In this document: one piece after another, positions 5,501-32,000 of the stretch | Layout of the letters: every line of letters begins with the position of its first letter | Position numbering within the stretch: position 1 is the stretch's first letter | From: Candidatus Micrarchaeum sp. | Lineage (GTDB): Archaea > Micrarchaeota > Micrarchaeia > Micrarchaeales > Micrarchaeaceae | Length of the DNA stretch: 32,000 bases | Assembly: GCF_016806735.1 (NCBI RefSeq) | Contig: NZ_CP060530.1 | Location: forward strand, 210,001 to 242,000 | Direction of reading: 5' to 3' | Made by a program: the position numbers and the translations under genes | Notes under the pieces: generated by a model | Seen by the model: only the letters and a program-made list of their open reading frames with translations | Told to the model about the DNA's origin: nothing | The model's database searches: none

Positions 5501-5550
5501 ATAATATATGGTGTAAAAAAGATTTGCGCTAATGATAAACGGTGAAAAGT

Positions 5551-5853
5551 ATGGAATATGTATATGCGGCACTGCTGCTTGACGCAGCTGGAAAGGAAGT
5601 GAACGAGAAGGAGCTTATGGACGTAGTCAAGGCTGCGGGATTTTCGCCAGACGAGGCAAAGGCCAAAGCTGTAGTCGAATCCCTTAAGGGGCTCAACATA
5701 AAGGACATAATAAAGAACGCTCAAAGCATGCAAGTGGCAGCACCGGCAGCGGCACCTGCGTCAGCTGCACCTGCAAAGGAGAAGAAGGAAGCAGCAAAGG
5801 AGGAAAAGAAAGAAGAGGAAGCTGCAAGCGGACTCGCGGGACTTTTCGGCTGA
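5551..5853 (+). CDS. rpl12: 50S ribosomal stalk protein P1 (aP1 / L12e)
   Basis: [22 protein letters not shown]... followed by an Ala-rich hinge, a KEE-rich stretch and the conserved tail [10 protein letters not shown] prefer ATG 5551 (GGTGA 5 nt upstream) over the track start at 5542. Confidence 0.93.
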
Positions 5854-5858
5854 TTTTC

Positions 5859-6749
5859 TCAACCGAAATAATCCAGCATATTGCGCTGGCCTGATGCCTG
5901 CGCAATTTCATTCTTTTTTTCTTCTGTAGGCGCCGTTTCCGCGGCGATCTTTTTTGCCTCTTTTTCATTTTCAACGGCACTTGCAGAGTCGGGTTTCTCC
6001 TTAAATTCTGTGTCTATCCTCGCACCTGCAATCTTAAGCTCTTTTCTTAATGACCTGTATTCAGGGATGTATTTTGCAACTGTTTTCCAGAACCTTTTCG
6101 AGTGCGACCTTACTTTCGTGTGCGAAAGCTCGTGCACCACAACGTAATCAAGGAATTTTCTGTCAAGGAAAAGAAGCCTTAGGTTTATCGATATGTTGTT
6201 TTTGGGCGAGCATGACCCCCATATCGTAAGGCCCCTGCTTATGCTTATTCTTCCAAGCTCGCTTCCGAACTTTCGGTTCCATTCTCTTACATAGCTATCA
6301 ACATAGCTTTTGTAGTGCTTTGCCAGCGCCCTCGAAACTAGATCCGATACATTCCTGCTGCTGTCTCTTCCAAGCTTTACTGAAACCATGCCGTTTCCGA
6401 TCGCTACGCGTGAGTGCACAAGGCCGGATTCACGTACCGATATTGCAAGCCTTTCAGATAAAGGTGCAATAATCTCCCCATCCCTAAATTCAAGCTGGCT
6501 GTTCCCGAGAAAGCTGCCAGGCTTTTTTCTTACCGCATTCGATATCTTTCCGTATAGCTCGTCTATAATCCTGAGCTTTCTTTTCCTGCTGCATTTCTGC
6601 GGTACCCTTATCATTACTTTGCCGTTTCTTATCGACGCGTAGCCGTTCTTGAGCCTAGCTTCTACTATCTCAACTTCCAATTTTTTGCCGTAAAATTCTA
6701 TAGGCTCCAAGCGTTTTGCATATTCGGATGGAGATGGGATGCCAAGCAT
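5859..6749 (-). CDS. YgjP/DUF45-family HExxH zinc metallopeptidase-like protein with a C-terminal PIP-box tail
   Basis: 296 aa. WGSCSPKNNISINLRLLFLDRKFLDYVVVHELSHTKVRSHSKRFWKTVAKYIPEYRSLRKELK is the YgjP-like (M48/DUF45) core with its HExxH. It is followed by a K/E/A-rich tail ending QRNMLDYFG*. Confidence 0.85.
   Translation of the reverse strand: MLGIPSPSEYAKRLEPIEFYGKKLEVEIVEARLKNGYASIRNGKVMIRVPQKCSRKRKLRIIDELYGKISNAVRKKPGSFLGNSQLEFRDGEIIAPLSERLAISVRESGLVHSRVAIGNGMVSVKLGRDSSRNVSDLVSRALAKHYKSYVDSYVREWNRKFGSELGRISISRGLTIWGSCSPKNNISINLRLLFLDRKFLDYVVVHELSHTKVRSHSKRFWKTVAKYIPEYRSLRKELKIAGARIDTEFKEKPDSASAVENEKEAKKIAAETAPTEEKKNEIAQASGQRNMLDYFG
5865..5888 (-). other. PIP-box-like motif QRNMLDYF at the C-terminus of the DUF45 metallopeptidase
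   Basis: The codons read directly as Q-R-N-M-L-D-Y-F, then G and stop. This fits Qxx[LIVM]xx[FY][FY]. Confidence 0.6.
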
Positions 6750-6791
6750 AATGCTTATTGCATTCTAACTTTTTTATACCTGAGCGATTTT

Positions 6792-7373
6792 TCATGCGGT
6801 AGTGCGATTCCTGAGTGCCTTAGCGCATGCGCTGTCCATGTCTTCTGGCGCAGCGATAGTTACCAAATTATTTACTCCTTTGATGAAGAATCCTGCAACT
6901 CTGTTGTAATCGGTGCGTATCAATACGGATCTTATGCCCTTCCTTGCCGCATTTATCACGACATTTGGTTTGTCGTCGAGCAGAAGCGCAGGCTTTTCGC
7001 CGTTGTGCTCTGCGTATTTATACCTGTCCTCGGTAAGCTCCACGCTGGCATCTATCCCGTAGCGCTTCAGAACGGATTTTATTCTTTCTGCGCCAGATGT
7101 CCCTATCCTCTTGTTTGCCGTCCTAACTATTACATCAAACCCTGAATCGTAAACCGTTTTCAGGGCTTTGACTACCTGCATGTTGAGCCCCTTTTCGACG
7201 TCTATGTGCTTTGCAACGGAATCGACTACAGAAGGTATCCTGTCAAGGGCGTTGAATATGAGCTCCTTGAACACATGCTCTGTGCCAGAATCTTCACGCC
7301 TGAGAAACTTGCCAAAAGTTTCATGGACATCGTCCACCAGACATCCGTCCAAATCTACTACAACAAAAGCCAT
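6792..7373 (-). CDS. HAD-superfamily hydrolase-like protein (capless, small)
   Basis: MAFVVVDLDGCLVDD carries HAD motif I (DxDx) at the N-terminus. VIVRTANK is motif II-like and LLLDDKPN is motif IV-like. I prefer ATG 7373; the track start at 7385 is a TTG four codons upstream. Confidence 0.6.
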   Translation of the reverse strand: MAFVVVDLDGCLVDDVHETFGKFLRREDSGTEHVFKELIFNALDRIPSVVDSVAKHIDVEKGLNMQVVKALKTVYDSGFDVIVRTANKRIGTSGAERIKSVLKRYGIDASVELTEDRYKYAEHNGEKPALLLDDKPNVVINAARKGIRSVLIRTDYNRVAGFFIKGVNNLVTIAAPEDMDSACAKALRNRTTA

Positions 7374-7514
7374 GTTGGTCAGCAAGTAATTTTTAATGCA
7401 GGTTTAAATTGCACTGCTGCCACTACGTCTATCGTCAAAGTGCATGTACGATGTGCATGTCGGCGTTATAATGGCAAAGGCAAGCAATAAATAAACCTAA
7501 AGGCAATCAATATT

Positions 7515-10355: not shown

Positions 10356-11216
10356 GTGCCTGCATACAAATACGCTAATGTGCAGGAATCAAGCCTAAAA
10401 TTCAGGATTGATTCCGGCCAGCTTCTTGGGAAATTGAGCTCAACCTCGCCGAAAATGGCAGAGTTTCTGAAAGACACGGACTACATAATCGCCCTAAGGG
10501 ATCTCGCAGGAATTTCCGGAGCCAATGCCAAAAGCCACGAAGTGCACGAAATAGAAAATGAAGAATTGTTCTCCATGCTAAGGCGTGCAAGGGACAAATC
10601 CGGAAATCAGGTGTATAAGGATGCGCACTTTTCGGTAGAGCAGCATGATGCAGACAGCATATACGGAATACAGACATTCATAAGCGTAGACAAGCTTGCC
10701 GAATCTGAGAAAAGAGACATATTTCTCAATGCCGTTGGCGCAACTGCATATCCAGAGGGCCGCAGCTACGCAATAAAAGCAAATTTTGGCGGAAAAACCT
10801 ACGCTTCCATACTTGTGCCGCCAGTAGTAATAGACTACAGGTCCAAGGATCTCGAAGGGCCCATCAAGATCGTGGAAGAAAGAATTGCCAAAGGCGACGC
10901 CATAAAGATAAAAGGCGTCGAAGGCACGGTCGAATTTGACATGGTAAGCGCCCTTGCAGATATAAAAAATACGATATCAAAAAGCGATACAGTCAGGACG
11001 GTTAAAGACGGCACCCACAGGACATATCTGGCATATCTGCTGAACAAAAAATTCAATGCCATAACAATAAGCAACCAGACCGAGCTGCCTACCAACATAC
11101 CCGTGCGATTCGGCATGATGGTAATGTCAAAAGAAAAGCCCAGGCCAGAAGACAGGTATCCAGGTTATACTCCAGCAGCAAATTCCGAGCTTAAGCAGTT
11201 CGGCATAGATTCGTGA
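10356..11216 (+). CDS. Hypothetical protein with a ParB/Srx (DGxHR)-like motif
   Basis: 286 aa with protein-like composition. The C-terminal half contains TVRTVKDGTHRTYLAYLLNKKFNAITI, which resembles the ParB N-domain / sulfiredoxin / DGQHR signature. The start is uncertain: GTG 10356 or ATG 10455. A TATA-like TATATATTAAAA lies at about 10317-10330. Confidence 0.6.
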   Translation: MPAYKYANVQESSLKFRIDSGQLLGKLSSTSPKMAEFLKDTDYIIALRDLAGISGANAKSHEVHEIENEELFSMLRRARDKSGNQVYKDAHFSVEQHDADSIYGIQTFISVDKLAESEKRDIFLNAVGATAYPEGRSYAIKANFGGKTYASILVPPVVIDYRSKDLEGPIKIVEERIAKGDAIKIKGVEGTVEFDMVSALADIKNTISKSDTVRTVKDGTHRTYLAYLLNKKFNAITISNQTELPTNIPVRFGMMVMSKEKPRPEDRYPGYTPAANSELKQFGIDS

Positions 11217-11770
11217 TAAGCTTGAAGCAAAAAATTCCCACGGTAAAAAAACCAACCCGCAGAAGCGCTGCAGTGGTGGATTTTGACAACACGCTGTTTT
11301 TCACAGACGAATGCACAATCATGGCTTCTAAGTCAATCTATGGCAGGCGCATGCCTGTAGAAGAGATAAGGTCCCTTCCGAAGCCAGAAAAGCACAGGAT
11401 CTACAGGCTCGGATTCGAAAAATACCACAGTAAAAGCAGGCCAAATACATTTATAATAAGAAAGCTCAAGAAGAGCGATGCAGAGCTGATATTGCTGACT
11501 GCCAGGACAAAGGAGGATTCCAAAACTATAATGTCCCTTATCGCATCCAGTGGCCTCGAGTTTGACCGCCTTATCTTCAGGCCAAAGAAATATCTTTTCG
11601 GCCACGACGAAGAATGGAAGCTTGGGGTATTGAGCAAGATTTCTAAGAAGTATGACGATATAGAGTTTTATGAAGACAAGATTGAAAACATAATGCACGC
11701 AAAAAGCGGCCTTCCGGACCAAAAAATCAAGTACTTCAGAGTTTCAGGAGCTTCGATAAATAGGGTATGA
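11213..11770 (+). CDS. HAD-superfamily phosphatase-like protein (capless)
   Basis: 185 aa. AAVVDFDNTLFF is motif I (DxDxT). LILLTARTKED is motif II. IEFYEDKIEN is motif IV-like. The GTG start overlaps the upstream stop (GTGA at 11213-11216). No in-frame ATG precedes motif I. Confidence 0.65.
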   Translation: MISLKQKIPTVKKPTRRSAAVVDFDNTLFFTDECTIMASKSIYGRRMPVEEIRSLPKPEKHRIYRLGFEKYHSKSRPNTFIIRKLKKSDAELILLTARTKEDSKTIMSLIASSGLEFDRLIFRPKKYLFGHDEEWKLGVLSKISKKYDDIEFYEDKIENIMHAKSGLPDQKIKYFRVSGASINRV

Positions 11771-19011: not shown

Positions 19012-19064
19012 CGTTGTTTCTTCTTATTTATTCTTATGCTTGGGTGTTTCATCTGATAAGCTAT

Positions 19065-21695
19065 ATGAGCAAGGGTTTTAGCGACAAGGAATCACTCGGC
19101 GTGCTCAACAAGGACGTCAGGGAATGGTTTACAAGCAACTTTAAAGAGCTAACAATGCCGCAGAGCTTTACATTCAAGCTTGTCAGCGAGCACAAAAACA
19201 TACTCGTGGCTGCGCCAACAGGTTCTGGAAAAACAATGTCCGGATTTGTCGCAATACTAAGCGACCTGTTCAACAAGGCTTCGCGGGACGATCTCAAGGA
19301 GGGCGTATACTGCATCTACGTTTCTCCGCTAAGGGCCCTCAACAACGACATATACAAGAACCTCAGCAAGCCATTGGAGGAGATATACAAGCTGTCCGAG
19401 AAGAACGCAAAGTCGTCAAAGGTCACGATAGCTGTCAGGACCGGAGATACCCCTCAAAAGGATAGGCAAAAGCAGCTCAAGCACCCTCCGCACATACTGG
19501 TAACCACGCCGGAGAGCCTTGCAATACTAATAACTTCGGAGAAATTTGCCGAAAATCTCAAGCTGGTTGAGTATGTAGTCATAGACGAGATACATGAGCT
19601 GGCTAACAACAAGCGCGGCGTGCACCTTTCGCTTTCTCTGGAAAGATTGCGTAGCATGATAGGCCACGATTTCACGCGCATAGGGCTTGGCGCAACACTC
19701 TATCCACTCGACGAGGCAGCAAAATACCTTGTGGGATGCAACGAGGACGGCACATCGCGAGATTGCGTGATAATAGACGCTTCATGGGGAAAGAAGCTCC
19801 AGGTGCAGGCTATAAGCCCAGTAAAGGACATGATATACACTCCAGACGAAAAGATAGAGCAGAACACATATTCGATAATAAACGACATAATAAAGAAAAA
19901 CAAGTCGACCCTGATATTCACAAATACGAGGAGCGGAACCGAACGTGTCGTATTCAACCTCAAGAAGAAGTTCGGCTACAACGAGGACATAGCAGCGCAC
20001 CATGGATCACTATCAAGAGAATCCAGGCTAGAGGTAGAAGAGCTGCTTAAGGCCGGCTCGCTGAAATGCGCAGTATCCTCGACAAGCCTTGAGCTCGGCA
20101 TAGACATAGGCAGCATAGATGATGTAATACAGCTCGGCTCTCCTAAAAGCGTAACGCGCGCGGTTCAAAGGATAGGCAGGGCCGGCCACAAGTACAAATC
20201 CGTTGCCAAGGGCGAAATAATTGTGCTCAACAGGGACGACCTCGTCGAATGCAGCATAATGCTTGACGCTGCGCTCAAGCGCCACCTGGATTCATTCAGG
20301 GTGCCGATGAATGCGCTGGACATACTCTCGCAGCACATAGTCGGAATGTCCATAACCAAGAAATGGGACGTCAAAGAGGCATATTCAGTAATCAAATCGT
20401 CATATCCATATTCAAAGCTGCCCTATGAAGATTTCATTGCCACCATAAGGTACCTTTCCGGGGAATACGTAGGCCTTGAAAGCAGGAGGGTATACGGGAA
20501 AATATGGTACGACGAAAAGGAAAATACATTCGGCAAGCGGGGCAAGATGATACGCCCAATATACATGCTCAACCTCGGCGCAATACCCGACGAAGTATCT
20601 GTCAACGTATTCGACACAAAAACAAAAAAGTGGATAGGAAACATAGAGGAGGAATTCCTGACAAGGCTGAAGCAGGGTGACATATTCACCCTTGGCGGCA
20701 GGCTCTACAGGTTCGAGTATGCAAAGGGCATGAGGTGCTACGTGTCCACAGCAGTTTCGGCAGCTCCGACCATACCTCCGTGGTTCTCCGAGCAGCTTCC
20801 ACTGAGCTACGAGCTAGCGATTGAAATAGGTGCATTCAGGCGCAACTTTTCCGAGACAATAGCAAAACATTTCAAGAAGTCTGCTCTCAAGCTGGCTTCG
20901 AAGATGCCAAAGGAGGTTTCAGAAATGCTCGGCTCGCTCCCGATAGATTCAAACGCTTCCAAGGCCATATATGGCTATTTCGTAGAGCAGCTGCTCTTCG
21001 CCGGATCCGTTCCTAACGACAAGCTGATGCTCATAGAAATAACAAAGGATCCCAAGAGCGGTCAGAATCTTGCAATATTTCATTCACTTTACGGCCGGCG
21101 CATAAACGACACCCTCTCGCGAATAATAGCCATACACATAGGCAGGAGGCTTGGAACCGACGTAGGCATAATGATAAACGACAATGGCTTCCTTATAAAT
21201 ACCGAGGGAACGCTAAAGCCCTCTGATATAGAAGAAGCCATAAATTCCATGGTTGGCAGGGACCCAGAACCGCTGCTCAAGTCCAACATAAGGAAAACGG
21301 AGATAATGAAGCGCAGGTTCAGGCACGTCGCAGCAAGAAGCTTCATGATACTTCGCAACTACAAAGGCTACAAGCTGCCCGTGGGAAAGCAGCAGATAAA
21401 CGCTACGCTTTTAATCAAGGCAGTGGAGAGCATAGACAAGGATTTCCCTGTCTTGAAGGAAACCTACAGGGAGATATTTGAGGAGGTGATGGACCTTCCA
21501 AGGACAAAATCGCTGCTCAAAAGCATAAAATCCGGCGACACGAAATACAAAATCATAAAGACGCAGATCCCGAGCCCGTTCGCCCACTCTATGATAACCT
21601 TCGGCCATGCGGACGTAGTGCTTATGAAGGAAAGGCATGAATACTTAAAATACCTGCATAAGATGGTAATAAAGAGGATAAACGCATCAAAATGA
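19065..21695 (+). CDS. lhr: Lhr-type (Lhr-core) ATP-dependent DEAH-box helicase
   Basis: It carries VAAPTGSGKT (motif I), VVIDEIHE (motif II), GLGATL, HHGSLS and QRIGRAGH (motif VI), plus a long Lhr-type C-terminal winged-helix/domain-4 region. I prefer the start at MSKGF (19065); the first 17 codons of the track ORF look non-coding. Confidence 0.88.
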   Translation: MSKGFSDKESLGVLNKDVREWFTSNFKELTMPQSFTFKLVSEHKNILVAAPTGSGKTMSGFVAILSDLFNKASRDDLKEGVYCIYVSPLRALNNDIYKNLSKPLEEIYKLSEKNAKSSKVTIAVRTGDTPQKDRQKQLKHPPHILVTTPESLAILITSEKFAENLKLVEYVVIDEIHELANNKRGVHLSLSLERLRSMIGHDFTRIGLGATLYPLDEAAKYLVGCNEDGTSRDCVIIDASWGKKLQVQAISPVKDMIYTPDEKIEQNTYSIINDIIKKNKSTLIFTNTRSGTERVVFNLKKKFGYNEDIAAHHGSLSRESRLEVEELLKAGSLKCAVSSTSLELGIDIGSIDDVIQLGSPKSVTRAVQRIGRAGHKYKSVAKGEIIVLNRDDLVECSIMLDAALKRHLDSFRVPMNALDILSQHIVGMSITKKWDVKEAYSVIKSSYPYSKLPYEDFIATIRYLSGEYVGLESRRVYGKIWYDEKENTFGKRGKMIRPIYMLNLGAIPDEVSVNVFDTKTKKWIGNIEEEFLTRLKQGDIFTLGGRLYRFEYAKGMRCYVSTAVSAAPTIPPWFSEQLPLSYELAIEIGAFRRNFSETIAKHFKKSALKLASKMPKEVSEMLGSLPIDSNASKAIYGYFVEQLLFAGSVPNDKLMLIEITKDPKSGQNLAIFHSLYGRRINDTLSRIIAIHIGRRLGTDVGIMINDNGFLINTEGTLKPSDIEEAINSMVGRDPEPLLKSNIRKTEIMKRRFRHVAARSFMILRNYKGYKLPVGKQQINATLLIKAVESIDKDFPVLKETYREIFEEVMDLPRTKSLLKSIKSGDTKYKIIKTQIPSPFAHSMITFGHADVVLMKERHEYLKYLHKMVIKRINASK

Positions 21696-21699
21696 TAAA

Positions 21700-22449
21700 A
21701 TGATGCTTGGCGAAGACATAGAGCTCATCGACGGCATGCCATTGCTATTTATAAAAAGCCTGAACGCCATTGTTGTCGCCGACATGCACCTCGGATACGA
21801 GGGAGTTATGGCTAAGCGCGGGGTGCTGATACCGAAGGTAAATTTGCGGAAAATGCTGGAAACAATAGGCTCGGCAATCGAGAAGACTCACGCCAAAAAG
21901 CTTATAGTCGACGGAGATATAAAGAACGAATTCTCAAAGGTAGACGAAGAGGAATTCAATGAGTTATACGATTTCATAATGTTCTGCAGGAACGCAGGAA
22001 TAGAGCCCGTGCTCATAAAAGGAAACCATGACAATTTTGTCGAAAGGTACAGGGAGCCTTTCAAGCTTTCGGTATACAGGCAGCAGGCAGTTATGGGCAA
22101 ATACCTGTTTTTCCACGGGGAGGAGCTCCCGGAACTCGGCAAAGCGACAAAGGGGATAAAGGCGATGATAATGGGCCATGAGCATCCTGCGATAGGCATA
22201 ATCGACGCTATAGGAAAACACGAAAGGCTGAAGTGCTTCCTTTACGGCAAATACAAGAATATTCCCCTAATTGTAATACCTGCGCTTAACTTCTTCGCCG
22301 GCGGCACGGAAATAAACATGGTGCCAAAATCAGAGCTGCTCGCCCCTATATTTTCAAAGCTTAACCTGGATGGCATGCATGCCATAGCCGTGGGATACGG
22401 ATCGACGATAGACTTCGGCACAATAAAAGACTTGCGCAAGCTTGCATGA
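21700..22449 (+). CDS. Metallophosphoesterase, PdeM/MPE-like (helicase-associated)
   Basis: It has the calcineurin-like motifs VVADMHLGYE, VDGDIKNE, KGNHD and MGHEH. The start is 4 nt after the Lhr stop. Confidence 0.82.
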   Translation: MMLGEDIELIDGMPLLFIKSLNAIVVADMHLGYEGVMAKRGVLIPKVNLRKMLETIGSAIEKTHAKKLIVDGDIKNEFSKVDEEEFNELYDFIMFCRNAGIEPVLIKGNHDNFVERYREPFKLSVYRQQAVMGKYLFFHGEELPELGKATKGIKAMIMGHEHPAIGIIDAIGKHERLKCFLYGKYKNIPLIVIPALNFFAGGTEINMVPKSELLAPIFSKLNLDGMHAIAVGYGSTIDFGTIKDLRKLA

Positions 22450-24901: not shown

Positions 24902-24913
24902 AAAGTGCTTGAG

Positions 24914-25963
24914 ATGGCGGTAGACCTTAGCAAACTCATAATCAGGGAGAAGATATCGCTCAAGGAGCTAAGCGGCAAAACGGTGGCAATAGACGCATAC
25001 AATGTGCTCTACCAGTTTCTTTCAATAATAAGGCAGCCGGACGGCACGCCGCTAAAGGATTCCAAGGGTAGGGTAACAAGCCACCTATCTGGGCTTTTCT
25101 ACAGGAGCATAGACCTGATACAAAACGGGATAACTCCTATATACGTGTTTGACGGGATACCGTCAAAGCTCAAAATGAAGACCATAGAAGCAAGGACAAG
25201 GAGGAGGGACAATGCCTACAACGCGTGGCTTGAGGCAAAAGCGCAGGGGGCCCTTGAAGCGGCAAGGACATACGCGCAGGAAAGCACCAGGGTGGACAAG
25301 GCAATAGTGTCCAGCGCCAAACAGCTACTGGATCTTATGGGCATAGCGCAGCTTACCTCTACTGGCGAGGGCGAGGCTCAAGCGAGCTACATGTGCAGGG
25401 AGGGCCTTGTTGACGCAGCTGCAAGCCAGGATTACGACACCCTGCTCTTCGGCGCCCCTGTGATAATAAGGAACCTTACGCTTTCCGGAAGGCGCAAACT
25501 CCCCAAAAAGAACGTTTATGTAGAGGTTGAGCCTGAGCGCGTGATACTGGCCGAAACCCTCAAAGCCCTTGGAATATCAAGGCAGCAGCTCATATGGATA
25601 GGCATAATGCTTGGAAACGATTTCAACGACGGCATAAAGGGCATAGGCCCGAAGACTGCGCTCAAGATAGCGATGGAATCAAAAAGCATAAGCGACGTGG
25701 AGTCAATAGTTGAGCAGAAGTTCAAGACTCCCTTCCAGACCGACATACGCGAGGTCGAGGAGCTGTTCAATAATCCGGATGTCAAACGCATCGAGAAGCC
25801 GGAGCTGGAGAAAATGGTCTCGGCAAAGCCCGATATAGAAGGCATAAAGCGCATGATGTGCGACGATTACGAGTTTTCCGAAGCTCGTATTGTCAAGTTT
25901 GCCGAACTCCTGGCCAAAAAGAGGGATTCGTCAAGGCAGGAAGGCATATCCAAGTGGTTCTGA
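24914..25963 (+). CDS. fen: Flap endonuclease 1 (FEN1)
   Basis: LSGKTVAIDAYNVLYQFLSIIRQPDGTPLKDSKGRVTSHLSGLFYRSIDLIQNGITPIYVFDG, GEGEAQASYM and SQDYDTLLFGAP match FEN1. It has a C-terminal PIP box QEGISKWF*. I prefer ATG 24914 over GTG 24905. Confidence 0.94.
   Translation: MAVDLSKLIIREKISLKELSGKTVAIDAYNVLYQFLSIIRQPDGTPLKDSKGRVTSHLSGLFYRSIDLIQNGITPIYVFDGIPSKLKMKTIEARTRRRDNAYNAWLEAKAQGALEAARTYAQESTRVDKAIVSSAKQLLDLMGIAQLTSTGEGEAQASYMCREGLVDAAASQDYDTLLFGAPVIIRNLTLSGRRKLPKKNVYVEVEPERVILAETLKALGISRQQLIWIGIMLGNDFNDGIKGIGPKTALKIAMESKSISDVESIVEQKFKTPFQTDIREVEELFNNPDVKRIEKPELEKMVSAKPDIEGIKRMMCDDYEFSEARIVKFAELLAKKRDSSRQEGISKWF
25937..25960 (+). other. PIP box QEGISKWF at the FEN1 C-terminus
   Basis: Q-x-x-I-x-x-W-F immediately before the stop. 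This is the established location of the archaeal FEN1 PCNA-binding motif. Confidence 0.8.
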
Positions 25964-27483: not shown

Positions 27484-29217
27484 ATGGCAAACGAAAAGCT
27501 CGCGGAAATATTCAATGAAATCGCTGACATGCTGAGCGTTGACAAAAGGCCAACCGCAAGGTTCGAGGTGCGCGCCTACCAGAACGCAGCCATGGCGCTG
27601 CTCTCCATGGATGAGGACGTATCCAAGCTCTATGAGCGCTCAGGCATAGACGGTCTTATGTCGATAAGCGGGATTGGAAAGGGCCTTGCCGGAAAGATAG
27701 AGGAATACATAAAGACCGGCCGCGTCAGGAAGTACGACGAGCTAAAGAAAAAATACCCAATAGACTTCGAAAATCTTACGAAGATAGAAGGCATGGGGGC
27801 AAAGAGGGCAATTACGCTTTACCAGAAGCTAAACGTAACCGACATAAAAAGCCTTAAGGATGCCATATCCTCTCACAAAGTCATGACTCTTGAGGGTTTT
27901 GGCGAGAAGAGCGAGCAGCTGCTTGAAAAAGGTATAGAGATGCTCGAAGGCTCAAAGGGAAGAATGCTGCTCGGCTACGCACTGCCTGCAGCGGAATCCA
28001 TAGTATCAGAACTTCTGGCCTCGAAAAAAGTGGAGAAAGCCATAATATGCGGCTCAACGAGGCGCATGAAGGAAACAATAGGCGACATAGACATACTTGC
28101 AATATCGCAGCACCCCGAAGATGTAATGGACCTGTTTGCGAAAATGAAAGGCGTATCCAACATAGTAGTCAAAGGCCCAACGAAAACCACCGTATGGCTT
28201 GACATTGGCACGACTTGCGATTTGAGGGTGATAGCCCCAGAAAGCTTCGGGGCAGCAATGCAGTACTTTACCGGCAGCAAGGAGCACAACGTGGAAGTAA
28301 GGAAGATAGCAATATCCAAGGGCTACAAGCTTAACGAATACGGGCTATTCGACAAAAACGACAAGGTGGTCTCAGCGATAGACGAAACGGACATCTATTC
28401 ACGGCTTGGAATGGATTGGATAGAGCCTGAAATGAGGGAGAACCGCGGCGAAATAGCCCTGGCAAAAAAGCATAAGCTGCCGAAGCTGGTAAAATTGCAA
28501 GACCTAAAAGGAGACATGCATTCCCATACAAAGGAAACGGATGGGACAAACACTCTGGAAGAAATGGCAAGCGCCGCCATGGCACACGGGCTCGAGTATC
28601 TGGCGATAACCAATCATACGAAAAGCCTGAAAGTTGCCAGGGGAATGGACGAGAAGAAGTTTGCGGAATTCTTCAAAAGGGTCGATGCCTTGAACGAAAA
28701 GCTTGATGGAAAGCTCACGCTGCTCAAAGGGGCAGAAGTTGACATATTGAAGGACGGATCTCTGGATCTTTCCGCAGCTGCGCTCAAGAGTATGGACTGC
28801 GTGGTTGCCGCTGTACACTCAGGCTTCAACATGGGCATCAATGAGATGACATCTAGAGTAATAAAAGCAATTGATTCCGGATACGTGAACATACTTGCGC
28901 ACCCTACTGGCAGGATAATCAACGAAAGGGAGCCGTACGCTATAGATCTCAGAAAAGTCGCAGAAAAGGCTGAAGAGAAAGGCGTTGTAATGGAGATAGA
29001 CTCGTATCCGAGCAGGCTAGACCTCAACGACGCATCGATATTTGCCATACGCGACTACAAGGTATTGTTTTCGATAGATTCCGATGCACACAGCGTATCG
29101 CATTTCGACAATCTGCGCTATGGGATTGGGATGGCAAGGAGAGGCTGGCTTACAAAGGAAAAGGTCATAAACACGATGCCGGCAAGGCGCATATCCAAGC
29201 TGATAGCCAGAAAATAA
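27484..29217 (+). CDS. polX: Family X DNA polymerase with C-terminal PHP domain (PolX-PHP)
   Basis: HhH motifs (GIGKGLAGKIEEY, IEGMGAKRAITLY), a catalytic GSTRRMKETIGDIDIL, and YFTGSKEHN. The PHP domain begins GDMHSHT...LAITNH...AHP...DSDAH. Confidence 0.92.
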   Translation: MANEKLAEIFNEIADMLSVDKRPTARFEVRAYQNAAMALLSMDEDVSKLYERSGIDGLMSISGIGKGLAGKIEEYIKTGRVRKYDELKKKYPIDFENLTKIEGMGAKRAITLYQKLNVTDIKSLKDAISSHKVMTLEGFGEKSEQLLEKGIEMLEGSKGRMLLGYALPAAESIVSELLASKKVEKAIICGSTRRMKETIGDIDILAISQHPEDVMDLFAKMKGVSNIVVKGPTKTTVWLDIGTTCDLRVIAPESFGAAMQYFTGSKEHNVEVRKIAISKGYKLNEYGLFDKNDKVVSAIDETDIYSRLGMDWIEPEMRENRGEIALAKKHKLPKLVKLQDLKGDMHSHTKETDGTNTLEEMASAAMAHGLEYLAITNHTKSLKVARGMDEKKFAEFFKRVDALNEKLDGKLTLLKGAEVDILKDGSLDLSAAALKSMDCVVAAVHSGFNMGINEMTSRVIKAIDSGYVNILAHPTGRIINEREPYAIDLRKVAEKAEEKGVVMEIDSYPSRLDLNDASIFAIRDYKVLFSIDSDAHSVSHFDNLRYGIGMARRGWLTKEKVINTMPARRISKLIARK

Positions 29218-29219
29218 GC

Positions 29220-32000
29220 CTACATGAATTTAAGCAGGTTGAACTGCTTGTCGTCTTTTATCGGCACGGTTCCCACCAGCCCAAATACCGCTTCTATCTC
29301 CTCCTTGAGGAGAAGAATCCTCTGCTTTATGTACGGCTCTAGCTCATACCTGTCGGCAAGATTTATCGCAGTGTAAAGATACTTCTCTATTCCTCCCTTG
29401 GATATCGTGAGCAAAAGCTTGCCTCCGCATCTGGTGCATACGCCCTTTATCGGTATGCGCCTATATTTTGCATTGCACTGCACGCAGCGGAATCCCTGCC
29501 TTGAATATGAATGAAGGTTGCCCATCAGGTCAGGTATGAAATGGCTTAGTATTAGCCTCCTGGCAGTATCTCTTTTGTCTATGCTGTACAGCTTGTCCAT
29601 CAGGCTGAACTGCATTTCTATTTTGTCGTTCATGGTTTTGAGAGTAGTGTACGAACTTCTCTTCGGAGCTTGTGCTACTGCGTCTATGCCGGAAAGATGC
29701 GTGAACTTTATCCCGGAATATATGGAATCTTTCTGAAGCCTGTCTCCCACGACTTCTACCTTCACCTCTCCGGGTGCAGGATACGAATATGTCTTGTCAT
29801 AAAAATCTATGCCGTAGCTTTCCACCACTTCCATGGCGTGGACCTCGTCGTCAACCTCTTCGGGCTTGACGTTTACGGTGAGTATCAGCGGTGCGTCCAT
29901 TGTGCCTCCCACTGTTGTGGGCATGTAATGCTTTGAAAAATTCACAAGCGCATCAAGGAGCATCATCGTAGTGTCTTCGTCCCCGTCGCAGTTCCTCCTC
30001 CTCGCAGAAACAAGGTACGGATGCGCGAATCCCACGCTGGCATCGGTGAATCCTATGATCCTGCCGAGCACCCCTGCAGAAGTGTGCGGAGAAAGCGTTA
30101 TCACGTAATGGCCTATAAGGTCCTTCTGCTCAGATACGTTGTAAAATTTTTCCAGGCCGTAAAACCTTACCAGCATCTCGTCCATAAATTGCGTGACGTT
30201 GATGAAATAATCTGCGCCCCTCCTGTTCAATATTACGTCCTGATGCATGAGCTCGACCAGCTGGTCCCCGCGCTCAAGCGGATTGCCCATATAATCTTTG
30301 TCATAGCCTAGCTTCTTCAAGGTCTCTACATCTACGGATATCTCGTCAGGATAGAAATGCGTTATCGGCACATCGGTAGCGTCGAATCTCGATGTTCCGT
30401 CTTTGAATATGAATATGTTGTGTGTGCTGCGGAGCAATCCCTTCTCCAGAGGCTCTGCAAGCTTGTCGGCATTCGAAAGCCCCTTAACTCCTTTCATGAG
30501 CTTCGGAAGCGAAGTCATTCCAATGTTTTTCATGGCCCTGTTAACCTCGGAAACTATGTTTATTTGCTTCATTTCGCCTCCTTCCATCTGGCCCCCGCAT
30601 TTCTCGCATTTCAAGCCAGTCCCGAAGTTTCCGCAAAGCTTGCATTTGCGCATTATCTCTGCCCTGCACTTGTGCTCCTCGCAGTAGAATGAGTTTATGT
30701 ACTCGCCACCTTTGGTGCAGAGGTGTCTTGCAAGCTCGACGTTTATGCTCTGCGAATTGAACTTCTTTCCCTGCAGAACGTACGCCTTGGTTATGCTTCG
30801 TTCCTTGCCCCCATATTCGCCTATCGGAAACAATATGTGCGGCGCGGGCTTCATCAGCCTCTCTCTTGCCTTTTCCGGCCTTCCCATTCTTCCGCCGATT
30901 TTCGTGGAGCGCTTCATTATCTTGAACTTGGCCAGCTTGTTGAGCATCTCAAGCGAGCTCTGTGCCCGCAGCGCATCTTCGGGCAATTCCTCATTTTGGA
31001 TTATATTTCCATTCCTTACGAGCCCGAAGCTGGCAATGAGCGACTTTGCTGTTTCGCCCTCTACGTCTATGCTTTCGTTCCTGTCCATGTGGGGTATGCA
31101 GGCCCTCTCCAAAAGTTCGCGAGCCTTGGCCAGCCTGTCGCCGCTTATGGTAACCGAATGGATTTCATCCAGCATTTTGGCGCCCCCGAGGTCGGCCTCC
31201 TTGAAAGTTTCAACCAGAAAGAGCATGTCCTCAGTGCTTATGTCCGAATAATCGTATATGAATTTTGGATGCATTGGCACTCCGTATTTTTCCGAGATTT
31301 CTAACGCCTCTGCAAAATCCGATACCTTTGGAATCACATCGCATCCTGCTTTTTTGAGCTGAAGCGCCCAGTACTCCTCCACATAGCTCGTCGGGCTTAG
31401 CGGGGTATTTGTCTTCTTGAAATCTCCGTAAGTGACGAGTATGTCGCCAACCGACAAAATCTTTTTTATATGGGGTTCGAGCCTTCTTGCCTCATCTGCA
31501 TCCTTTATCCTGAAAGCCTCGCCAGTATCGAGCTTGACAAACGGCCCCTCTATGGTATCAACTGGCACGGCTACGCAGCCTTTTCCGGGCTTTTCGACCT
31601 TGAGCTGTGTTCCGGTAGCTATAAATTCATCCATAAGGTACATGGTTGCAGGGTTGAAACCCTTAGAAGCTATGCCGGTGAATCTGCTCCTTCCGTATCT
31701 GAGCCTGAAAGCTCCCGAATGTTCCGGATATGCAAATATGGGCCTTCCAGCCACAAGCTCCTGCAGGAATACCACGTCCTTCTTGGTTTCCTTCTGCTCG
31801 GTCTGCTGAGATTTTTCTACCTTTATTATCTGGTTGAGCCAGGACCAGTCCAGCCCGGCTCCTTTCGTGTACTTGAGCACGCTTTTTGCCTTCTGCGCTA
31901 TTCCCTCGCACGAAACAAGGCATATGCCGCTCCTTATCTTGTTTGATATCATCTGCGGCTTCCCGGCAGCGTCAAGCCTGTTTATGTTCCTGTGTATGCC
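29220..32000 (-). CDS. polC: DNA polymerase II (PolD) large subunit DP2, C-terminal ~925 codons; N-terminus lies beyond the right edge
   Basis: The minus frame stays open to nt 32000: GIHRNINRLDAAGKPQ precedes the track's first M. It has Zn-finger modules (CEEHKCRAEIMRKCKLCGN...CEKCGG; CVQCNAKYRRIPIKGVCTRCGG) and the catalytic RRRNCDGDEDT block. The C-terminus is QFNLLKFM*. Confidence 0.92.
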   Translation of the reverse strand, partial: GIHRNINRLDAAGKPQMISNKIRSGICLVSCEGIAQKAKSVLKYTKGAGLDWSWLNQIIKVEKSQQTEQKETKKDVVFLQELVAGRPIFAYPEHSGAFRLRYGRSRFTGIASKGFNPATMYLMDEFIATGTQLKVEKPGKGCVAVPVDTIEGPFVKLDTGEAFRIKDADEARRLEPHIKKILSVGDILVTYGDFKKTNTPLSPTSYVEEYWALQLKKAGCDVIPKVSDFAEALEISEKYGVPMHPKFIYDYSDISTEDMLFLVETFKEADLGGAKMLDEIHSVTISGDRLAKARELLERACIPHMDRNESIDVEGETAKSLIASFGLVRNGNIIQNEELPEDALRAQSSLEMLNKLAKFKIMKRSTKIGGRMGRPEKARERLMKPAPHILFPIGEYGGKERSITKAYVLQGKKFNSQSINVELARHLCTKGGEYINSFYCEEHKCRAEIMRKCKLCGNFGTGLKCEKCGGQMEGGEMKQINIVSEVNRAMKNIGMTSLPKLMKGVKGLSNADKLAEPLEKGLLRSTHNIFIFKDGTSRFDATDVPITHFYPDEISVDVETLKKLGYDKDYMGNPLERGDQLVELMHQDVILNRRGADYFINVTQFMDEMLVRFYGLEKFYNVSEQKDLIGHYVITLSPHTSAGVLGRIIGFTDASVGFAHPYLVSARRRNCDGDEDTTMMLLDALVNFSKHYMPTTVGGTMDAPLILTVNVKPEEVDDEVHAMEVVESYGIDFYDKTYSYPAPGEVKVEVVGDRLQKDSIYSGIKFTHLSGIDAVAQAPKRSSYTTLKTMNDKIEMQFSLMDKLYSIDKRDTARRLILSHFIPDLMGNLHSYSRQGFRCVQCNAKYRRIPIKGVCTRCGGKLLLTISKGGIEKYLYTAINLADRYELEPYIKQRILLLKEEIEAVFGLVGTVPIKDDKQFNLLKFM
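29223..29246 (-). other. PIP-box-like motif QFNLLKFM at the DP2 C-terminus
   Basis: Q-x-x-L-x-x-F-M immediately before the stop. A C-terminal PCNA-binding motif on the PolD large subunit is established. Confidence 0.7.

Follow-up and report, generated by a model that had tools for sequence, protein, structure and literature searches.

Fork-tethered proteases are, to our knowledge, so far known only in eukaryotes. FAM111A is a serine protease with a PCNA-interacting protein (PIP) box, and SPRTN carries a SprT zinc-binding subdomain, an SHP box and a UBZ domain. In Archaea, we know of no PCNA client that is a peptidase. A review of archaeal PCNA partners from 2016 covers polymerases, RFC, FEN1, ligase, RNase HII, NucS, NreA/B and TIP, and the words protease, peptidase and hydrolase are absent from it (PMC4929162). 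Our literature searches found no dedicated archaeal DNA-protein-crosslink protease, no link of the DUF45/YgjP family to PCNA, in line with an earlier note on this DNA that was not aware of DUF45 proteins as PCNA clients, and no account of what the family does in the cell. In this study we analysed a stretch of 32,000 nucleotides from Candidatus Micrarchaeum sp. (NCBI RefSeq: NZ_CP060530.1, positions 210,001 to 242,000), here called the window, and describe in it a gene for a DUF45/YgjP-like HExxH metalloenzyme (zincin) whose C-terminal tail probably docks onto PCNA.

We propose that this zincin is tethered to PCNA and most likely cleaves proteins stuck on DNA, a combined explanation to which we give a probability of about 0.5. 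Its gene and the parts of its product, as well as the two reference PIP boxes in the window, are as follows (positions are those of the window).

5859-6749, minus strand: DUF45/YgjP-like zincin with C-terminal PIP tail, a complete gene of 296 amino acids with an ATG start and the stop codon at 5859-5861
6033-6635, minus strand: YgjP-like metallopeptidase domain (Pfam: PF01863), residues 39-239, isoelectric point (pI) 10.2, net charge +24
6102-6134, minus strand: zinc site HELSHTKVRSH with HExxHx5H spacing, aligning to the active-site helix of proabylysin
5889-5996, minus strand: linker, residues 252-287, acidic and rich in K/E/A/T/S, modelled as disordered with a predicted local distance difference test (pLDDT) score below 50
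5865-5888, minus strand: probable PIP box QRNMLDYF, residues 288-295, followed by G296 and the stop codon
25937-25960, plus strand: reference PIP box of FEN1, QEGISKWF before the stop codon; the gene lies at 24905-25963 on the plus strand and its identity is confirmed by Pfam
29223-29246, minus strand: reference PIP box of PolD DP2, QFNLLKFM before the stop codon; identity confirmed by Pfam

The earlier note had read from the letters a DUF45/YgjP core with HExxH, a K/E/A-rich low-complexity tail, the ending QRNMLDYF-G-stop at 5865-5888 and a C-terminal layout shared with FEN1 and DP2 in the window. All of these stand. The core is a PF01863 domain with an invariant HExxHx5H site, the low-complexity stretch corresponds to the linker listed above, and direct reading of the sequence places QRNMLDYF at exactly 5865-5888, G296 at 5862-5864 and the TGA stop codon at 5859-5861. 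The endings of FEN1 and DP2 are likewise as stated. An identical protein is present in GenBank (QRF73725.1, 'hypothetical protein Micr_00242'), assigned to Candidatus Micrarchaeum sp., a tiny ARMAN-type DPANN archaeon of acid mines with a genome of 989,838 bp.

The tail is probably disordered, as residues 252-296 were modelled by AlphaFold2 with pLDDT below 50, and the only structure in it is a one-turn helix at M291-D293 within the motif, predicted with low confidence. QRNMLDYF fits the PIP consensus Qxx[LIVM]xx[FYW][FYW/aliphatic]. When all stop-to-stop segments of at least 80 amino acids were taken from the six frames of the window (154 segments), a PIP-like Qxx[LIVM]xx[FYW][FYWLIVM] within the last 15 residues occurred in three of them, namely the DUF45 open reading frame (ORF), FEN1 and DP2. 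By chance, about 9e-5 strict motifs per protein would be expected to fall at the very C-terminus, or about 0.09 per genome of 1000 proteins. No PCNA gene lies within the 32-kb window.

A word-index search found 11 full-length orthologues with 47-99% identity and lengths of 289-297 amino acids, whose tails end in QRNMLDYF[GS], QRDISEYFG, QRTLENFS, QR[QH]ISDFIG or QGSLLDYMA. An exhaustive profile search with 25,469 DUF45 matches added one further member of this clade, a fragment ending in QRSMTDYFG. The pattern Qxx[MIL]x[DEN][YF], followed by 0-2 residues, is present in 12/12 members of the window clade (Micrarchaeum and Mancarchaeum), down to 47% identity, and in all of them at most one residue separates the 8-residue motif from the stop codon. 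The glutamine at position 1, an aliphatic residue at position 4, an acidic residue or asparagine at position 6 and an aromatic residue at position 7 are always kept, and only small residues (G, S or A) follow the motif. Pairwise identity averages 62% for the domain and 20% (minimum 3%) for the linker, which varies in length from 31 to 41 residues. Synonymous changes are found within the motif codons between the window and L001, the locus of an orthologue with 78% identity. As a control, each tail was shuffled 500 times, which gave an expectation of 0.21 motif-bearing tails for the window clade. In a neighbour-joining tree, the PIP-bearing sequences of this clade are monophyletic.

The motif also occurs in a second clade, made up of relatives of Candidatus Bilamarchaeum (Micrarchaeia, order Anstonellales). 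Here Qxx[LIVM]xx[FYW] was found in 22/49 tails, compared to a shuffle mean of 0.87 and a maximum of 4; examples, each ending at the stop codon, are GQQKITQFF, GQYKITDFFILQ, GQQTLYEYYDEPY and GQLRIDDFVYEEPY. Among the other DUF45 proteins 1/302 matches the motif, as predicted by chance. The pooled logo of 27 distinct motifs reads Q-x-[TKS]-[ILM]-x-[DE]-[FY]-[IF..] and fits the PIP consensus. As a positive control we used the FEN1 proteins of Micrarchaeota, of which 100/120 end in Qxx[IML]xxW[FLMVI] plus 0-1 residues, and FEN1 orthologues vary at position 8 as the DUF45 motif does. Based on these conservation patterns, the terminal motif is under selection in two clades of Micrarchaeia and behaves like the genuine PIP boxes of these organisms. 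We consider it likely that it is a functional PCNA-binding PIP box. The earlier note had cautioned that so short a motif can arise by chance, a concern that the counts remove (12/12 against 0.21, 22/49 against 0.87 and 1/302 elsewhere), and in the comparison of orthologues, set beforehand as a check, the motif was neither absent nor scrambled and was kept in every member of the clade while the linker diverges.

One internal match, QKTLITYL in the DUF45 protein P0147, was rejected as chance since it is not conserved in its own 90% identity cluster. The second clade (P0446-P0490 and relatives) has another motif at the extreme C-terminus, [DE]EPY before the stop codon, with the variants HEPDETY and ELSFD. 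It stands alongside the PIP box in 10 proteins and is found without a PIP box in 15. Such an acidic-aromatic terminus recalls partner-binding tips, for example the tail of the bacterial single-stranded DNA-binding protein SSB.

The catalytic domain is a clear member of its family. PF01863 matches with E=5.4e-41 and 141.3 bits against a cut-off of 26, and all 13 orthologues in our alignment match as well. H206, E207, H210 and H216 of the HExxHx5H site and the segment W177-G-S-C-S181 are invariant in this 13-orthologue alignment; H206, H210 and H216 would bind the metal, with E207 as the putative catalytic base. This is the metal-site spacing of the Wss1 type. Modelled with AlphaFold2 from the 13-sequence alignment, residues 6-251 form a confident fold with block means mostly at pLDDT 85-96. 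The domain is strongly basic (pI 10.2, 50 K+R versus 26 D+E), in contrast to an acidic tail (pI 4.9). Such a charge, which is compatible with a polyanion, is a trait of the whole family, as over 250 DUF45 domains of bacteria and archaea have a pI of about 10.

Besides PF01863, Pfam gave matches to WLM (Pfam: PF08325; E=8.2e-5, 23.2 bits, gathering threshold 26) and SprT-like (Pfam: PF10263; E=1.9e-3, 18.5 bits, gathering threshold 25.6), both of which stay below threshold. These sub-threshold matches recur among the orthologues, for WLM in 10/13 and for SprT-like in 11/13. Peptidase_M48 is not matched at E<=1, despite the annotation name given by NCBI. The protein is therefore DUF45/YgjP-like and not SprT-like, WLM or M48. 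No Pfam signal was found in it for the SprT zinc-binding subdomain, the SHP box or UBZ, no NCBIfam family matched it at E<=1, and a PADLOC search for defence systems matched neither the zincin nor its HAD-like neighbour.

The nearest solved structure, both by sequence and by fold, is that of proabylysin (PDB: 4JIU), with E=5e-6 in hmmsearch and with a Foldseek E-value of 6.9e-4, a template modelling (TM) score of 0.73 on the target and a root mean square deviation (rmsd) of 2.1 Å over 96 columns; matches of this type cover only the C-terminal ~100 residues of the domain, its catalytic half. Projannalysin and selecase (PDB: 4JIX and 4QHI) are also among the nearest solved relatives in Foldseek. 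Wss1 is next (PDB: 5XBN, 5LN5 and 5JIG) with Foldseek probabilities of 0.91-0.99 and a TM score of about 0.54 on the target, but with E-values of 0.1-0.3. SPRTN (PDB: 6MDW and 6MDX) is a weak match with a probability of 0.15-0.21, and IrrE is likewise weak. The catalytic half thus has the minigluzincin scaffold of the proabylysin type. Wss1 and SPRTN have been placed on a common minigluzincin scaffold, and 4JIU was described as the closest non-WLM structure to Wss1 (PMC4559962, PMC5557861).

Elsewhere the DUF45 family is very large, with more than 25,000 clusters at 50% identity, and it includes proteins in which DUF45 is fused to GIY-YIG. A tblastn search found 124 plasmid homologues of the zincin. 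The type I restriction-modification gene hsdR directly adjoins the homologue in seven of nine sampled plasmids, from Bartonella, Klebsiella, two Vibrio species, Acaryochloris, Bacillus and the archaeon Haloarcula, but not in the other two. The DUF45 gene is usually directly downstream of hsdR as the last gene of the operon, and is convergent in Bacillus; in three plasmids its start codon overlaps the stop codon of hsdR. The hsdR-linked loci are L088-L094 (for example NZ_CP104897.1, NZ_CP155668.1 and NZ_CP073367.1), and the DUF45 homologues in them are named 'SprT family zinc-dependent metalloprotease' by the annotation pipeline PGAP; hsdR-linked members of the family also go under the name 'M48-family'. 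A matching arrangement, with a 'predicted M48-family metallopeptidase' after hsdR, has been described in a defence island of enteropathogenic Escherichia coli (EPEC), and DNA-translocating HsdR is known to be proteolytically removed by ClpXP during restriction alleviation (PMC12255303).

In the mechanism that we propose, the PIP box would fill the hydrophobic pocket that lies beneath the interdomain connector loop in the PCNA ring of Micrarchaeum, so that the enzyme would travel with the clamp and ride at sites of replication and repair. The flexible acidic linker of about 36 residues, which could span ~100 Å or more when extended, would let the basic domain reach clamp-adjacent DNA. There the HExxHx5H site may cleave stuck or covalently trapped proteins on DNA, or stalled clamp clients, and the zincin would be a functional analogue of eukaryotic SPRTN, Wss1 or FAM111A. 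By analogy to other zincins, the enzyme is more probably a peptidase than anything else. Its substrates are tentatively placed among DNA-bound or crosslinked proteins. A link to crosslink proteases has some support from the sub-threshold WLM and SprT-like matches, the minigluzincin/Wss1-like fold, the pI of about 10 and the coupling to hsdR. A broader and rather doubtful reading is that DUF45/YgjP is the prokaryotic counterpart of Wss1/SPRTN and clears stalled or crosslinked DNA proteins through the DNA-tracking machine of each lineage. Recruitment may then go via PCNA and the PIP tail in Micrarchaeia, and via HsdR and operon coupling in bacteria and haloarchaea.

There are several points that weigh against the proposed PCNA-tethered protease. 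The nearest sisters of the window clade, P0121 and P0123, have tails without a PIP motif, and P0012-14, which are positional orthologues in another Micrarchaeota lineage and convergent with P1 like the window gene, end directly after the domain. The tether is therefore a lineage-specific addition and not a core property, and judging from these sequences PCNA tethering would not be needed for the core function. The motif is degenerate in places: position 8 is a serine in P0007 and P0008, and four proteins of the second clade end after motif position 7. On the side of the enzyme, we found no DUF45 protein with demonstrated protease activity in the literature, the only Pfam families matched besides PF01863 remain below their gathering thresholds, and E. 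coli YgjP is recorded as a slow, weak pyrophosphatase of uridine triphosphate (UTP). Furthermore, no DNA-repair or restriction-modification enrichment was detected with Pfam among the same-strand neighbours of 41 mostly bacterial relatives (79 GTDB loci). The sole neighbourhood signal in the GTDB loci is a lineage-specific synteny with Aminotran_5, and for close relatives the scan was uninformative.

The start of the gene deserves a comment, since RefSeq holds a shorter version of the protein (WP_203134851.1, 'M48 family metallopeptidase') with 273 amino acids, which starts 23 codons later and leaves out 6681-6749 on the minus strand. Upstream of the ATG at 6749 there is the following element.

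6770-6778, minus strand: TATA box TATAAAAAA, 20 nt upstream of the ATG at 6749

The N-terminus of the 296-amino-acid version (MLGI...) and the TATA box are both kept in orthologues. CAGGTATAAAAAAGTT is found at the same distance (~20 nt) from the ATG in L003 and L004, the loci of P0011 with 47% identity, whereas in L001 and L002 (P0005, 78% identity) the element is one base (G) shorter and reads CAGTATAAAAAAGTT. The Mancarchaeum locus L007 has TATAAAG as its TATA element. This conservation supports the start of the 296-amino-acid protein over the RefSeq start, which is probably too short. A TATA box at this place implies that the zincin gene is transcribed from a promoter of its own, into an mRNA without a leader.

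The zincin gene stands in a conserved gene order. PriS points away from a HAD-like gene (~195 amino acids), which is followed on the same strand by the DUF45-PIP gene, and P1, P0 and L1 run towards it from the other side. This order is kept in the relatives of Micrarchaeum and in Mancarchaeum. The upstream neighbour is as follows.

6792-7385, minus strand: HAD-like small phosphatase with DLDGCL and LLLDD motifs, a conserved upstream neighbour whose likely true start is the ATG at 7373

It lies upstream of the zincin in all the examined loci of tail-bearing orthologues, and the synteny is conserved in L001-L003 and L007. Its assignment to HAD is weak (Pfam E=0.047, TIGR01662 E=0.0025), a PDB sequence search gave no match, and the single-sequence AlphaFold2 model is unusable with a mean pLDDT of 47.5. 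We considered an operon of the zincin and the HAD-like gene, an idea that is weakened by the conserved TATA box dedicated to the zincin. On the other side, the aP1 ribosomal stalk gene (5542-5853, plus strand) is convergent with the DUF45 gene, with 5 nt between the stop codons, and its K/E/A-rich tail is similar in style to the tail of the DUF45 protein (AQASGQRNMLDYFG before the stop codon).

Part of the evidence would fit other explanations. A PCNA-tethered zincin without protease activity, acting for instance as a nucleoside triphosphate (NTP) pyrophosphatase that sanitises the pool at the fork or as another nucleotide or small-molecule hydrolase, maybe together with the HAD-like phosphatase, would fit the PIP evidence equally well. 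The HAD-like gene lies directly upstream in all examined tail-bearing loci, and the slow UTP pyrophosphatase activity of E. coli YgjP points in the same direction. We nevertheless regard a non-protease as unlikely, because HExxH zincins are overwhelmingly peptidases and the nearest structures, proabylysin, selecase and Wss1, are all metallopeptidases. The family-wide pI of about 10 and the hsdR coupling point to a macromolecular, DNA-associated target, the zincin gene, with a conserved promoter of its own, needs no shared operon with the HAD-like gene, and the HAD assignment itself is weak. It is also conceivable, though quite improbable, that the C-terminal motif binds a partner other than PCNA, either by mimicry of the aP1 stalk, which recruits translation GTPases, or through an adaptor that also reads the [DE]EPY terminus. 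The DUF45 gene and the gene of the P1 stalk face each other in every case, their products share K/E/A-rich tails with the ending ASG...[LY]FG at the stop codon, and PCNA binding does not explain the [DE]EPY terminus of the second clade. We give stalk mimicry less weight because the aP1 tail is identical between Micrarchaeum and Mancarchaeum while the DUF45 terminus shifts from YFG to FIG, NFS and YMA, and because the stalk motif has no Q; the invariant Q1, aliphatic residue 4 and aromatic residue 7 are the signature of a PIP box, in the same layout as the FEN1 and DP2 PIP boxes of this lineage.

The tail could also be an autoinhibitory pro-segment with the motif as a pseudo-substrate, or, in a hybrid form, a plug that is pulled by PCNA binding, which would activate the enzyme. 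The closest solved relative, proabylysin (PDB: 4JIU), is latent, with its own C-terminal tail reaching the zinc (PMC5557861), and the small residue after the motif (G, S or A) would suit such a role. In the AlphaFold2 model, however, the tail is left undocked on the domain with pLDDT below 50, and an in-cis plug has no need for 31-41 variable linker residues. As tail-less orthologues exist and the motif fits the PIP consensus position by position, a pro-segment is improbable too. Finally, the motif might be a chance or neutral one in a functionless extension, kept by shared ancestry alone. The chance expectation of ~0.09 strict terminal motifs per 1000 proteins is small but not negligible over many genomes, and the isolated match in P0147 is an example of a motif that its 90% cluster does not conserve. 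A chance or neutral origin is very unlikely in view of a pattern that is kept in 12/12 members while the linker is randomised, that carries synonymous substitutions inside its codons and that a second clade shows independently, ~25 times as often as shuffled tails would.

The window as a whole is an archaeal core region with the ribosomal genes L1, P0 and P1 and with PriS, Lhr, PolX, FEN1 and PolD DP2. The Lhr-type helicase (19014-21695, plus strand) has DEAD, WH_Lhr and DEAD_assoc domains and is followed after 4 nt by an SbcD-related, PdeM-like metallophosphoesterase (MPE; 21700-22449, plus strand; TIGR00024 E=2e-43). From their sequences, the two look like a DNA-repair gene pair of the Lhr-MPE style in a DPANN genome. 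Next to the DP2 gene is that of the PolX family polymerase (27484-29217, plus strand), which has a PHP domain at its C-terminus. The DP2 frame (29220-32000, minus strand) is open to the window edge and its true N-terminus lies beyond it, so the 910-amino-acid ORF starting at 31952 is a window-boundary artefact. A second small divergent HAD-like gene (11213-11770, plus strand) weakly matches the HAD domain of 'Swiss Army Knife' RNA-repair proteins. Beyond L1 in the Mancarchaeum locus (L007, 6819-7223, minus strand) there is an ORF of 134 amino acids with an HEVLH motif, which may be a mini-zincin.

Some of the compared proteins carry doubtful organism names. NCBI lists P0005, P0006, P0011, P0299, P0273 and others under 'Candidatus Marsarchaeota archaeon' or 'Methanothrix sp.', and these proteins from metagenome-assembled genomes are 72-99% identical to Candidatus Micrarchaeum proteins. 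The names are probable binning or taxonomy mislabels of Micrarchaeota because the exact protein comes from Candidatus Micrarchaeum.

The conserved tail, which probably docks onto the clamp, gives the DUF45/YgjP family a first specific and testable cellular address, the replication fork, and the retention of the zincin in DPANN genomes of ~1 Mb suggests that it is important to the cell. If our proposal is true, Archaea acquired the clamp tethering of a minimal zincin on a path separate from that of SPRTN and FAM111A in eukaryotes, which would also hint at a role for the restriction-linked DUF45 genes, for example in clearing stalled HsdR off the DNA. Should DUF45 be the counterpart of Wss1/SPRTN, Archaea would have in the Micrarchaeum protein their first replication-coupled DNA-protein-crosslink protease.

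With proabylysin, projannalysin and selecase, the closest solved structures among the known systems, the zincin shares the type of a soluble, minimal archaeal zincin. These proteins differ in that they stand alone with ~105-110 residues and have neither the DUF45 N-terminal half nor a PIP tail, and proabylysin is latent through its own C-terminus. Wss1, a yeast protease of the WLM family that acts on DNA-protein crosslinks in a DNA-dependent way, has the same HExxHx5H spacing, gives the best secondary Pfam match and is the next structural match after the archaeal minigluzincins, but the WLM match is sub-threshold and Wss1 is recruited via SUMO and Cdc48 (SIM, SHP and VIM motifs) and not via PCNA. 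The hsdR-linked DUF45 proteins belong to the same Pfam family, have a domain of equal size and are also coupled to a DNA-tracking machine, with operon coupling instead of a PIP tail. In the layout of its C-terminus the zincin resembles FEN1, PolD DP2, NucS/EndoMS and NreA, in which a terminal Qxx[ILM]xx[FYW]x follows a poorly conserved linker. SPRTN (Pfam: PF10263), the crosslink protease that is coupled to replication in eukaryotes, is likewise an HExxH zincin on a minigluzincin-like scaffold; its protease module is basic and compatible with DNA, and its long disordered C-terminus holds a PIP box. It belongs to a separate Pfam family, is a weak structural match and has no counterpart of the DUF45-specific N-terminal half of ~150 residues. 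In their mode of working, SPRTN and FAM111A would by analogy be the closest systems, as clamp-recruited proteases that clear protein obstacles on DNA.

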